DNA from: Escherichia coli
GTDB lineage: Bacteria > Pseudomonadota > Gammaproteobacteria > Enterobacterales > Enterobacteriaceae
Direction: 5' to 3' (one strand)
DNA: 64,000 nt
NCBI RefSeq assembly: GCF_011045215.1
Contig: NZ_CP049201.1
Shown one piece after another: positions 57-4,686 of the stretch. The notes under the pieces were generated by a model. That model was not told the origin of the DNA, did not search any database, and saw nothing but the letters and a program-made list of their open reading frames with translations. The translations under genes were made by a program, and so were the position numbers. Each line of letters begins with the position of its first letter. The first letter of the stretch is position 1.

Positions 57-81
57 CGGGGCATAAAAAATTTATGCCCCG
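57..81. other. Perfect inverted repeat / stem-loop (CGGGGCATAAA-aaa-TTTATGCCCCG)
   Basis: 11-bp arms read directly; no adjacent T-tract, so not a canonical intrinsic terminator. Confidence 0.5.
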
Positions 82-560
82 ACTCTCCAGCTCCTGTATC
101 AATCAGATAATTTCACGACGTCTTCCAGCTTATTGCCATCATCGACGGTCAGGCTCTTACGCAATCCCATCGCGCTGACTGCATGTTCTCGCCGCCTCAG
201 TGCGATTTTGACGGCCTTATCTGCCACCCCATCAAATCAAAAGCCCTCACGTCTTTTTCACGCTCAGCGTGAGAAATACAGCCATTCTGTTGTGTTGCTG
301 CGACATCGTTCAGGGGATGCTATTTATCCCCTGAAACGCGGGCTGTTCCCCCGTCACCTGCGCGCAGAAAAAACGCGTTTTTTTGTGCACGCACGGATCC
401 TTGACGGATCCAGCCGCCACGGGGGCCGGAAGGGCAAAAAGTCGTTCAAAAAAATTGTGCAAATTTGTGCACTATCGTGCAGTGTGCATCGTGCTGTTTT
501 CTGCGCAAAAAACGGATGGTAAATTTGTTCGTAGCAGGGAAATTTTAATGAGCGCAAGAC

Positions 561-1091
561 ATGAAGAAAGATTCATATCCTTATTTGATTTGCATGACTG
601 TTTCAGTGCTAGGGATTATTTTCCTCTTTTACTGGTGGAGGGCAGATATCTACAGGATTACATATCTTAATTCGCGTATATCCAATTATTACATCTTGTG
701 TAGTATGGGTATGTCCTTTTTCTTCTCCTTGTTTCTGGTGAAGAGGGGGGTAGTGAAGCAAAGTGGCTGGAAAGGACTGTCGGAATACCTGAAGGTTTAT
801 GCTGGCTCTTGCATTCTTACAGGGATATTCCTGATTATTCCTCTTATGATGGTGACTTATTTTTTACCAGGAGTAACATCATCATATGTTGCACCGTATG
901 AGTATACATCTGGTAGTTCAAGAAGCTGTTCCGGAGCGTTTGTTGATGATCCCGAACTGCATAAAAATATTCTTATTTGCTATCCGTATGGTAACTATGA
1001 ATATGACAATATTATCTATGTTGAAAAGAAAACTAATGCATTGGGCGTTGTTGTGACGTATGCACAGACTGCACGAGACGATGCTGAATAA
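561..1091 (+). CDS. Hypothetical polytopic membrane protein (about 3 predicted TM helices, soluble C-terminal ~80 aa); AT-rich cargo gene
   Basis: 176-aa ORF with three long hydrophobic segments; strongly AT-rich relative to flanking DNA; no family recognised. Confidence 0.5.
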   Translation: MKKDSYPYLICMTVSVLGIIFLFYWWRADIYRITYLNSRISNYYILCSMGMSFFFSLFLVKRGVVKQSGWKGLSEYLKVYAGSCILTGIFLIIPLMMVTYFLPGVTSSYVAPYEYTSGSSRSCSGAFVDDPELHKNILICYPYGNYEYDNIIYVEKKTNALGVVVTYAQTARDDAE

Positions 1092-3050: not shown

Positions 3051-4533
3051 CACTGGTCAGGCCACCCCGCAGCAGGTCTGCTTTGCGGCGGGCACGTTCA
3101 GTGGTTTCACTGATTCTCTGTGCGTGCTCTGCGTCGCGGATGGCGCGCAGCATGTCAGAAAGCACGGTAACGGGGGTTTTCATGGTGTTCTGGTCCTGCT
3201 GAAGTGTGGATGCCAGACGTGCGGCGGCTTCGAGGTCTGATGCCCCCAGCTGTTCCAGATAGCTGGCGACCGGGTTATGGCGGATCTCCGTGCTGCTTAC
3301 GCCGTGATTACGGCTCAGGCGCTGCCAGAGCTGCGTGATTCGGCTGTCCGGGCGGGTATCCGGTTTGCGTACAATTTCAAATCCCTGCGGTGCAATGATG
3401 CTGCCGTCAACGTACAGGCTGCCGCCCCGTAACAGGTGCTGCATCTGCTGTTCACCGATATGCATGCCGAGAGATTCGGCAGATTCCCGCCATTCTTTAG
3501 CGAGTAATTCGTGGTTATCAGGCAAAGGCCGCTGCTGTTTGCGGCTCTGTGTCCAGCTCTGCATTTCATCACTGCTGTTTTTTGCCTGTTTGTCACGCAG
3601 CGAACGCATCAGCGCCCGGCGTTCGTGCCGTTTCAGTGAGCGCACCCATTCATCCACATCAACGCCGTCAGGAAGCTGCGGCCACGGTGCTGGCCGTTCT
3701 TCCGGCTGTTCTGTCCCGTTGTTGTCCGTTTCCTGTACACGGGGACAGTTATTGCCACGAGTCCAAGGGGCGGCAGGGCCGCTCTGAAGGTCAAAACCAT
3801 TTTCGCGGGAGCTGTCTTCCGCTTCCGGTTTGCGTCTTACCAGCTTCCAGTTATCCGGATGCGTGCATACGCGGGAAGACTCCCCGATGAGCGGCGACCA
3901 GATCCCGTAAATCTGTACACTCTGCTCACCGTAATCGTTCAGTTCATCTGCGAGGTCGTAGGCGGTGCGAATCAGGTAGTCTTTGCGTGGAACAAGCACG
4001 CCACCCTGTTTTTCAATGTAGGTGGCAAAACACCCGGCATCAGCGGCAGCGAGTACCGCATCCATTGCGTCATCCTTCAGCCGTTGCGGGCCTTCCGGGT
4101 TGCGTGCCATCTGGCTGGCAAGGCGGCGCAGTTCACGCCACACCTGACGGGAGGGGATACCAAAGAACTGGAACTGGCGGACCCGGTGAAGGCGCGCCCA
4201 GCCGATGGCGCGTTCCACGCTCTCGGCCATTGATTTTCCGGTTTCGTGGTCAACGCGTGGCTTGCCCGTTTTCGGGTCGATGCCATCCACGGCGCGGCTG
4301 TCCAGGTTCTTTCCGATGTAGGTGGCGATGTAGCTGGTTGGCGTGCCTTTTGAGCCGTCGACGTACTCCGCCTTAAAACGCGGAGTTATGTCATCGCCCA
4401 GCTCGTGGCGGTCTTCCTGAATGGCAATATCGCAGACGTGGGACACGATGGTTTCAATCTCGTCCGGATGTGCAAAGACCATCATATGCCAGTGCACAGT
4501 GCCGTCATGGTGAGGCTCCAGCGGTGTATTCAC
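2980..4533 (-). pseudogene. HUH-motif rolling-circle replication initiator, P2 gpA-like; apparently 5'-truncated
   Basis: 517-aa ORF begins at GTG right at the motif HHDGTVHWHMMVFAHPDE, preceded by in-frame TGA; upstream 300 bp is coding-like in two other frames. Confidence 0.5.
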
Positions 4534-4686
4534 TCAGCGAGGCACACCCGCCAGCAGTGTGATGCGCCAGCATTGCCGCAAATACGGAGGCCGGGGAGTC
4601 GTAATACGCCAGCAGTGATTCGCCATGCGGTGTCAGGCAGCGCAACGCCAGCCCGTGTGGTGTTAAGTCCACGCGGTAGCAGTCGT

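Follow-up and report, generated by a model that had tools for sequence, protein, structure and literature searches.

A predicted cos packaging site in a P88-like prophage of Escherichia coli, flanked by the portal gene and a cargo hotspot

In phages P2 and 186 and in the satellite P4, the cohesive-end site (cos) gives 19-nt 5' cohesive ends and lies within a 55-bp core (Ziermann and Calendar, 1990, cited in PMC9594776, PMC5694545 and PMC3931495). Phages of the P2 family package from monomeric circles, unlike lambda (PMC2231350), and transduction of P2/P4 cosmids improves when the flanks of cos are longer (PMC9594776). In the P2, 186 and PSP3 records the 19-nt cos is annotated directly past the portal gene. 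The records of P2 and 186 place a terminator (tQ and tW, respectively) between the two, and in P2 the cargo genes stand on the side of cos opposite the portal. A variable-cargo hotspot between gpA and gpQ, adjoining the P2 cos, has been described by Rousset et al. (2022; PMC9122126). Here, we analyse the beginning of a 64,000-nt stretch of E. coli DNA (contig NZ_CP049201.1; hereafter the window), which starts inside a P88-like prophage (Xuanwuvirus, Peduoviridae, P2 family) and for which an earlier note, made from the letters alone, had pointed to a dense cluster of palindromes and TGTGCA repeats at 230-530. We propose, with a probability of roughly 0.85, that the core of this region, approximately 335-482, is the cos packaging site of the prophage. 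The interval 31-560 as a whole is the intergenic region running from the portal gene to the variable cargo hotspot, and the site in it is of a known kind, namely a P2-family cos of the G type (GTGCA motifs), which is very common and unannotated.

The layout of the window agrees with that annotated in P2, 186 and PSP3. The 3' end of the portal gene (homologue of P2 gpQ) occupies 1-30 on the plus strand, with its stop codon at 28-30, and the portal coding sequences of P88 and P884B11 terminate at the position aligned to window 30. Between this stop (base 30) and the start of a membrane-protein gene at 561 there are 530 bp in which the RefSeq annotation made by the Prokaryotic Genome Annotation Pipeline (PGAP) is empty. 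The locus used for the PGAP comparison, that of E. coli 2011C-4251 (an O-serogroup strain), matches the window at 100% over the core 335-490. Its portal gene is followed by 530 unannotated bp and a hypothetical protein (561-1091), and beyond these by an ead/Ea22-like pseudogene, ParM and then a replication endonuclease on the opposite strand; the genes for the terminase subunits gpM (small; WP_000632362.1) and gpP (large) lie just upstream of the window in this locus. The replication genes of the window point toward cos. Compared with P88-like phages, window 100-484 is 91-94% identical, and the match breaks off sharply near 484.

An exact 18-mer from the TGTGCA block retrieved 120 loci from IMG/VR, 106 of which were aligned. 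They comprise the P88 type, recombinants with 100-334 swapped, Novemvirus-like phages of Enterobacter, Klebsiella prophages and a satellite group, and window 335-482 alone is common to all these lineages. Conservation in the alignment is high just at approximately 328-395 and 421-482, and drops to the background level from 483. The last backbone element ahead of the variable cargo is the putative distal recognition block, A7-TT-GTGCAA-N4-GTGCAC-N4-GTGCAG (448-482), which in 17 diverse representatives is far better conserved than the flanking spacer. Since an 18-nt pattern from this block served as the query, the invariance of the 18-mer among the loci so retrieved is built in; the block was also recovered, slightly varied, in a sample anchored on the portal protein. 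Among 5426 complete E. coli genomes, 1148 contain the core, and none of them has an annotation for it.

The assignment as cos rests on position and on a comparison of modules. We reconstructed the sequences across the circular junctions in P2, P4 and 186 and aligned them without gaps, anchored on the T-run-RTGCA motif, with the Klebsiella type, the window, the satellite and phiT5282H (Novemvirus). One module order is common to all seven sequences: a GCGCGC-like flank, a C-rich block, approximately 19 nt, a run of four to seven T followed by RTGCA, a spacer, and RTGCAA-N4-RTGCAC. Around the 19-mer the invariant columns fall in the C-run, the T-run and TGCA; the module of about 19 nt before the T-run is a hairpin in P2, P4 and 186, and this hairpin is not conserved. 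The earlier suggestion of a protein-binding array agrees with what we find, a conserved array of predicted recognition motifs in a P2-like element that resembles the cos of P2, P4 and 186 module by module.

Within the window, the predicted cohesive-end (nicking) site is GGTGACGGGGGAACAGCCC at 340-358 on the minus strand, with ends accurate to within 1-2 nt. In the upstream block of the region, no part is better conserved than the one that contains it. The site would be the homologue of the 19-nt cos of P2, GGCGAGGCGGGGAAAGCAC; the two agree at 13 of 19 positions and are oriented alike relative to the portal gene. The register was given by the Klebsiella-type loci, which carry TTGCTCCCCCGCCTCGCC (16 of the 19 aligned positions equal the P2 19-mer, by a count made by eye) and otherwise have the architecture of the window. 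Because the Klebsiella type thus bridges the P2 19-mer and the window, and because of the context, we take 340-358 as the predicted cohesive-end site. A first alignment, of P2 CCGTCAGCGCGCA to window CCGTCACCTGCGCGCAG, which would have put the nick in the A6-CGCG-T7 palindrome, was dropped when these loci showed the correct register. The flank of the nicking site, TGCGCGCAG (359-367, with TGCGCGC), is conserved, and P2, P4 and 186 have GCGCGC beside the 19-mer. It is followed by the A6-CGCG-T7 palindrome (AAAAAACGCG/CGCGTTTTTT, 368-384), which stands at the position of the GC-rich hairpin of the 55-bp P2/P4 core and is not kept beyond the P88 type, where changes break its pairs without compensation. 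The putative proximal recognition motif, a T-run with GTGCAC (380-390), is present in all lineages and reads TTTTAATGCA in P2, P4 and 186; its distance to the 19-mer is 20-22 nt, like in P2. A variable GC-rich spacer (391-427), the sequence of which differs in the satellite and in other genera, contains two copies of ACGGATCC within 393-411. An imperfect dyad, TCCAGCC/GGCCGGA (409-415/424-430), lies within and past this spacer, and the conservation profile marks a moderately conserved block, GGAAGGGCAAAAA, at 428-440, ahead of the distal block.

We infer from these sequences that the terminase binds the RTGCA motifs and nicks at 340-358. The complex of gpM and gpP would bind the right arm of cos, contacting both the proximal T-run-GTGCAC (380-390) and the distal GTGCAA-N4-GTGCAC-N4-GTGCA (457-481), and the GC-rich spacer, with its fixed 77 bp and its central dyad, would keep the two motifs apart. 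Staggered nicks about 19 nt apart at 340-358 would then leave 5' cohesive ends of approximately GGTGACGGGGGAACAGCCC.

The spacing between the two motifs is strict. From the start of TTTTTGTGCA (380) to the first distal GTGCA (457) the window measures exactly 77 bp, and 77 bp also separate TTTTAATGCA from ATGCAA-N4-ATGCAC in P2, P4 and 186, with unrelated spacer sequences; in 118 unique G-type loci the equivalent distance is 75 in nearly all and 74 in one, a few being unmeasurable. Two independent samples agree with this. The portal-anchored one, which was not selected on the motif, has the same arrangement in approximately 70 of its 78 loci with sufficient flank, and the other, anchored on the P2 19-mer (97 unique right flanks), shows an RTGC-N6-RTGC doublet at offset 95-97 in 73 flanks and nearly none elsewhere in 260 nt, the spacers of these P2-type flanks falling into 68 clusters below 70% identity. 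Moreover, the proximal and distal motifs agree in type: the P2-type flanks (P2, P4 and 186-like elements) include 70 AA pairs vs 4 GA, and G goes with G in the P88, Novemvirus, Klebsiella and satellite types (28/29 among the Klebsiella-like flanks). In the Klebsiella type, G-type motifs occur beside a 19-mer like that of P2; the proximal and distal motifs therefore follow one another and not the nick site. Additionally, a GC-rich dyad is enriched in the middle of the spacer, with a stem of at least 5 pairs in 32% of sequences vs at most 6% at other offsets, and its arms vary widely among P2-, P4- and P88-type cos (CGCCAG/CTGGCG, CCGCGCC/GGCGCGG, CCGCC/GGCGG and TCCAGCC/GGCTGGA).

Given this arrangement, it is conceivable, at a little under even odds, that the functional cos of the whole P2/P4 family extends over approximately 140 bp and includes an obligatory distal doublet, a mid-spacer dyad and matched motif types. 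Under such a reading, which we put forward tentatively, the RTGCAA-N4-RTGCAC doublet would be obligatory at exactly 77 bp from the proximal T-run-RTGCA; the matched A or G type might, equally tentatively, set the specificity between helpers and satellites, and the TGTGCA repeats of the window would be its G-type element. The distal doublet, the midpoint dyad and the matched type lie beyond the 55-bp core of the open literature, and the extended architecture may already have been described by Ziermann and Calendar (1990).

The helper-satellite sharing expected of a P2-family cos was found. A 12.7-kb P4-like island inserted between hpt and gcd in E. coli NCTC9082 (NZ_LR134080; 1685-14192 of the retrieved locus) encodes an integrase, an Icd-like protein, a toprim primase and an ogr/delta-like protein. 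A copy of 335-482, 78% identical, stands between its integrase and ogr/delta genes; in this copy the distal block is intact and the ACGGATCC spacer is replaced. This island and the P88 type share just the cos core, as P2 and P4 share only cos. Further genes of the island specify a MazEF pair, a P2-family major capsid protein of its own and, upstream of the latter, a protein of 236 aa. Approximately 200 bp past its cos core (cos at 3980-4150 of a second retrieved record), we observed a dense array of GGTTACA/TGTAACC repeats (4360-4680 of that record), which is probably the origin of the satellite.

The same array bears on whether the repeats of the window could instead be a replication origin, an origin of transfer (oriT) or an iteron array, as had been guessed from the sequence. 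Dense repeats and palindromes, and the 10-bp period of TGTGCA, would fit such an element. However, the iteron-like GGTTACA array of the satellite is separate from its cos core, and the P2-family origin lies inside the coding sequence of gene A, which in the window is some 2.5-5.5 kb off. No initiator or relaxase gene is adjacent, and position and module homology are those of cos, a comparison in which the P2 origin itself was not included; we therefore regard an origin or oriT as extremely unlikely.

Outside P2-type phages, the element is neither whole nor intact in the lambdoid phage 434 (OL657226, 1114-1868 of the retrieved locus), where a copy of the cos flank and the membrane-protein cassette stand next to xis. 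Phage 434 has homologues of 253-344 and 428-560 and lacks 345-427, an 83-bp deletion that takes away the palindrome and the proximal motif along with most of the 19-mer, and its distal block has decayed to TACGCAATTTTGTGTAT. This copy looks like a transfer of cargo from a P2-like to a lambdoid phage in which cos was inactivated.

Several points weigh against the cos assignment or parts of it. At least 13 of 19 positions of the P2 19-mer are matched at 18 sites in the 64 kb, so that the 13/19 match of 340-358 alone is not significant. The contact of the terminase with the RTGCA motifs is deduced from homology, and the A and G types largely follow two clades, so that the covariation of the motifs rests on few independent switches. 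We found no physical-end data for any P88-type phage, and the linear record of Xuanwuvirus P884B11 (NC_049391) is opened at 436|437 and not at 340-358, i.e., about 80 bp from the predicted nick site, in a seamless way with no base missing or duplicated. This opening may reflect measured termini, or a circular assembly may have been cut there arbitrarily, in the non-coding stretch that precedes the packaging genes. Since 418-436 is moreover loosely like the P2 cos (9-10/19 in inverse orientation, counted by eye), a second candidate nick site at 418-437 is possible. Three further points concern transcription: in P2 the third distal repeat overlaps the -35 of the promoter of the old gene, as judged from annotated transcript starts; a terminator scan flags 472-457 on the minus strand, GTGCACAAATTTGCAC followed by AATTTTTTTG (a weak hairpin and T7); and in P4 the second and third repeats seem, by eye, to form the stem of the psu terminator.

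As to the genome ends, a scan of metagenomes revealed no contig ending at 418-437. Its sole suggestive start was that of the food-metagenome contig NODE-1067 (4243 bp, 168x), which begins at TTCCCCCGTCACC, equal to window 346 and 6 nt inside the 19-nt block; this start may be a physical end of phage DNA and lends weak support to the site at 340-358. Truncations of the IMG/VR loci are scattered, with no clustering at a genome end, and among the Klebsiella-type phage records none begins at cos.

The promoter overlap in P2 would fit the view that the TGTGCA array is an operator, or a promoter of the lambda CII type (TTGY-N6-TTGY), serving the hotspot cargo. The P88-type block indeed reads TTGT-N6-TTGT-N6-TTGT, the record of phage 434 labels its copy as a consensus CII-binding site, and the membrane gene follows downstream on the same strand as the array. 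We nevertheless consider this explanation quite unlikely: the block is kept with any cargo in either orientation (in P88 the next genes converge on it) and is kept in the satellite, the TTGY pattern is restricted to the P88 type and is broken by the ATGCA of P2, P4 and 186, and a scan of 1-1300 gave no sigma-70-like promoter, with no -10 found for the array. Nor does a promoter predict a strict spacing to cos, and the degenerate copy is that of phage 434, precisely where a CII-type promoter would act. Checks by eye for an Ogr-type late promoter (TGT-N12-ACA) and for an integration host factor (IHF) site gave no fit.

The two terminator-like structures listed above raise another alternative, that the distal block chiefly serves, as a terminator or insulator, to stop minus-strand transcripts of the early operon or the cargo before they enter cos. 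The high conservation of the A7 run (448-454) and the direction of the replication genes, which run toward cos, would suit such a function. Yet the stem has only 5 pairs and folds no better than shuffled sequences (z = -1.8), no T-run occurs at this place in P2 or 186, and the terminator t95b of 186 is a different element at a greater distance. The sequence is near-invariant, though a terminator would allow compensatory change, and the fixed 77-bp distance and the A/G co-variation would be left unexplained. Hence, we find it unlikely that termination is the main function of the block, and it may be a secondary one. Transcriptional uses of the distal block differ by lineage; its motif and spacing do not.

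All motifs listed in the earlier note are present where it placed them, and the inverted repeats exceed chance. We tested 230-530 (loop of at most 12 nt) against 1000 dinucleotide-preserving shuffles: with 6-nt arms, 10 inverted repeats were observed vs 1.5 +/- 1.6 expected, and no shuffle equalled this; with 7-nt arms, 6 vs 0.37 (equalled by 2 shuffles); and with 8-nt arms, 4 vs 0.11 (equalled by none). Across the window, only 5 of 637 tiles of 301 nt reach the observed count for 7-nt arms. GTGCA occurs at 385, 457, 467, 477 and 484, and RTGCA, which is scarcer than expected in the window as a whole (248 found vs 419 expected), is packed with 6 occurrences, both strands counted, into the 40 nt of 452-491.

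Not all of these features belong to the predicted cos. The palindrome GTCTTTTTCACGCT-C-AGCGTGAGAAATAC (251-279; z = -4.2), on the portal side of cos, extends the TCACGCT-C-AGCGTGA of 258-272; it is conserved, with no compensatory change, in 75 P88-type loci, is replaced by other sequence in the other lineages and has a weak likeness, judged by eye, to P2 GCGCTGAGACGCTGAAAAAATAC. The palindrome TTCAGGGGAT-N7-ATCCCCTGAA (309-335; z = -5.0), with perfect 10-nt arms that include the CAGGGGA-N9-TCCCCTG of 311-333, is perfect in this allele only, and its pairs 316/328 and 317/327 are A-C mismatches in most P88-type homologues. Because all lineages have just 335-482 in common, both palindromes are lineage-specific flank, with a role that is putative at most, and the ACGGATCC repeat (393-400 and 404-411) is spacer filler. 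Thus, among the listed features, the two P88-restricted palindromes and the repeat in the variable spacer fall outside the conserved core.

The better-than-shuffled folding of the hairpins 251-279 and 309-335 is also what would be expected of a structured RNA, either a 5' leader of the membrane gene or a small RNA. This reading, likewise raised in the earlier note, is very unlikely. Rfam gave no family at the gathering score, the sole match being the gyrA RNA at 36-89 (22 bits vs a gathering score of 45), and the covariance and fold check revealed no compensatory pairs in the three palindromes among 75-106 homologues, the variation breaking pairs. Other lineages lack the two best hairpins or have degraded forms of them, and all sequence to the left of 483 is retained even where the cargo is unrelated. 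The related idea of a regulatory region of the membrane gene did not hold for the cluster either; just 483-560 goes with the membrane-gene cassette.

The open reading frame (ORF) 133-522, suspected before to be non-coding, indeed appears so. Its TTG start is missing in 29 of 75 P88-type homologues, approximately 24 have an in-frame stop or frameshift, and the ORF spans the homology break at 482. Neither Pfam nor PHROGs has a family for it, and PGAP makes no call. In this frame, 230-482 shows a slight excess of third-position variability, which, viewed by eye, appears to come from a few hypervariable columns and to be outweighed by the lost starts and the stops. Searches of the overlapping ORFs in Pfam (four tested) and PHROGs (two tested) gave nothing; PHROG matches were obtained just for the membrane protein and a neighbouring ORF, both of unknown function.

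Closer to the portal gene, a strong hairpin (57-81, plus strand; -22.2 kcal/mol, z = -5.4) stands where P2 has tQ and 186 has tW; no U-run follows it, and its role as a terminator is putative. A minus-strand ORF of 42 aa (99-227), listed as a hypothetical protein in the P88 and P884B11 records, stays open in approximately 60 of 75 homologues, has flat variability over the codon positions (0.050, 0.056 and 0.047), matches no family and is not a PGAP call; it is probably not a gene. In three P88-type prophage loci, an additional insert of approximately 570 bp separates the portal gene from cos. By analogy with the portal-side cargo slot reported for phiCTX and phiRSY1 (PMC5694545), this insert would be a second cargo slot.

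Past the distal block, P88-type phages cease to be homologous at 482 and variable cargo follows. The segment 483-560 (plus strand) is a cargo-specific leader of the membrane-protein cassette, common to phage 434 and with extra TGTGCA/CGTGC units. It contains a palindrome, GTTTTCTGCGCAAAAAAC (496-513), and a possible extended -10, TGGTAAATT (517-525), both near base-for-base in 434 by eye, which may be the operator and promoter of the cassette itself; the sigma-70 consensus scan of 1-1300 found no promoter, and TGGTAAATT was read as one by eye only. The cargo gene (561-1091, plus strand; a PGAP hypothetical protein) encodes a membrane protein of 176 aa with 79% aa identity to a putative membrane protein of phage 434 (phrog_1416, function unknown), and PADLOC gave no match for it and one neighbouring ORF. 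Further on, 1194-1564 on the minus strand corresponds to a frameshifted and truncated ead/Ea22-like pseudogene in the PGAP annotation of the 2011C-4251 locus; because of this call, the 93-aa ORF at 1283-1564 is a fragment and the cargo region is decaying.

Taken together, a repeat cluster without an explanation becomes an ordinary feature, the predicted cos of a prophage type that about one-fifth of complete E. coli genomes contain, in each case with no annotation of the site. The 77-bp spacing, the distal doublet and the matched A/G motifs of the extended architecture suggest why cosmids with longer flanks transduce better, and they give a testable rule as to which satellites use which helpers and for the design of cosmids for P88-type particles. 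Where the P2-type cargo/defence hotspot has its left edge is set by cos: the break at 482 followed by a strain-specific gene corresponds to the hotspot boundary in Rousset et al. (2022; PMC9122126) and in Dodd and Egan (1996, cited in PMC5694545). What differs is the cargo, in the window a single membrane protein whose function is unknown and for which PADLOC gave no match.

In comparison with the cos of P2, 186 and P4, the 19-mer of the window matches P2 at just 13/19, stands 22 nt from the T-run instead of 20 nt and has predicted ends, the A6CGCGT7 palindrome replaces the GC-rich hairpin of P2 and P4, and the motifs are GTGCA and not ATGCA. P2-like phiRSA1, the ends of which have been determined, has GGTGAGGCGGGGTCCAAC, which opens as GGTGACGGGGGAACAGCCC of the window does. 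The window resembles the P2, 186 and P4 sites in its position past the portal gene, module order, 77-bp distance to the doublet, sharing between helper and satellite, and adjoining cargo hotspot. The cos of lambda is built of cosQ, cosN and cosB, with R sites for the small terminase subunit and a bend made by IHF. There is no sequence similarity between it and the window, and inspection of the window's spacer by eye revealed no IHF consensus; both sites are nevertheless alike in being multipartite, with a nicking site flanked by repeated motifs for the small subunit (predicted in the window) that are set at a fixed helical spacing.

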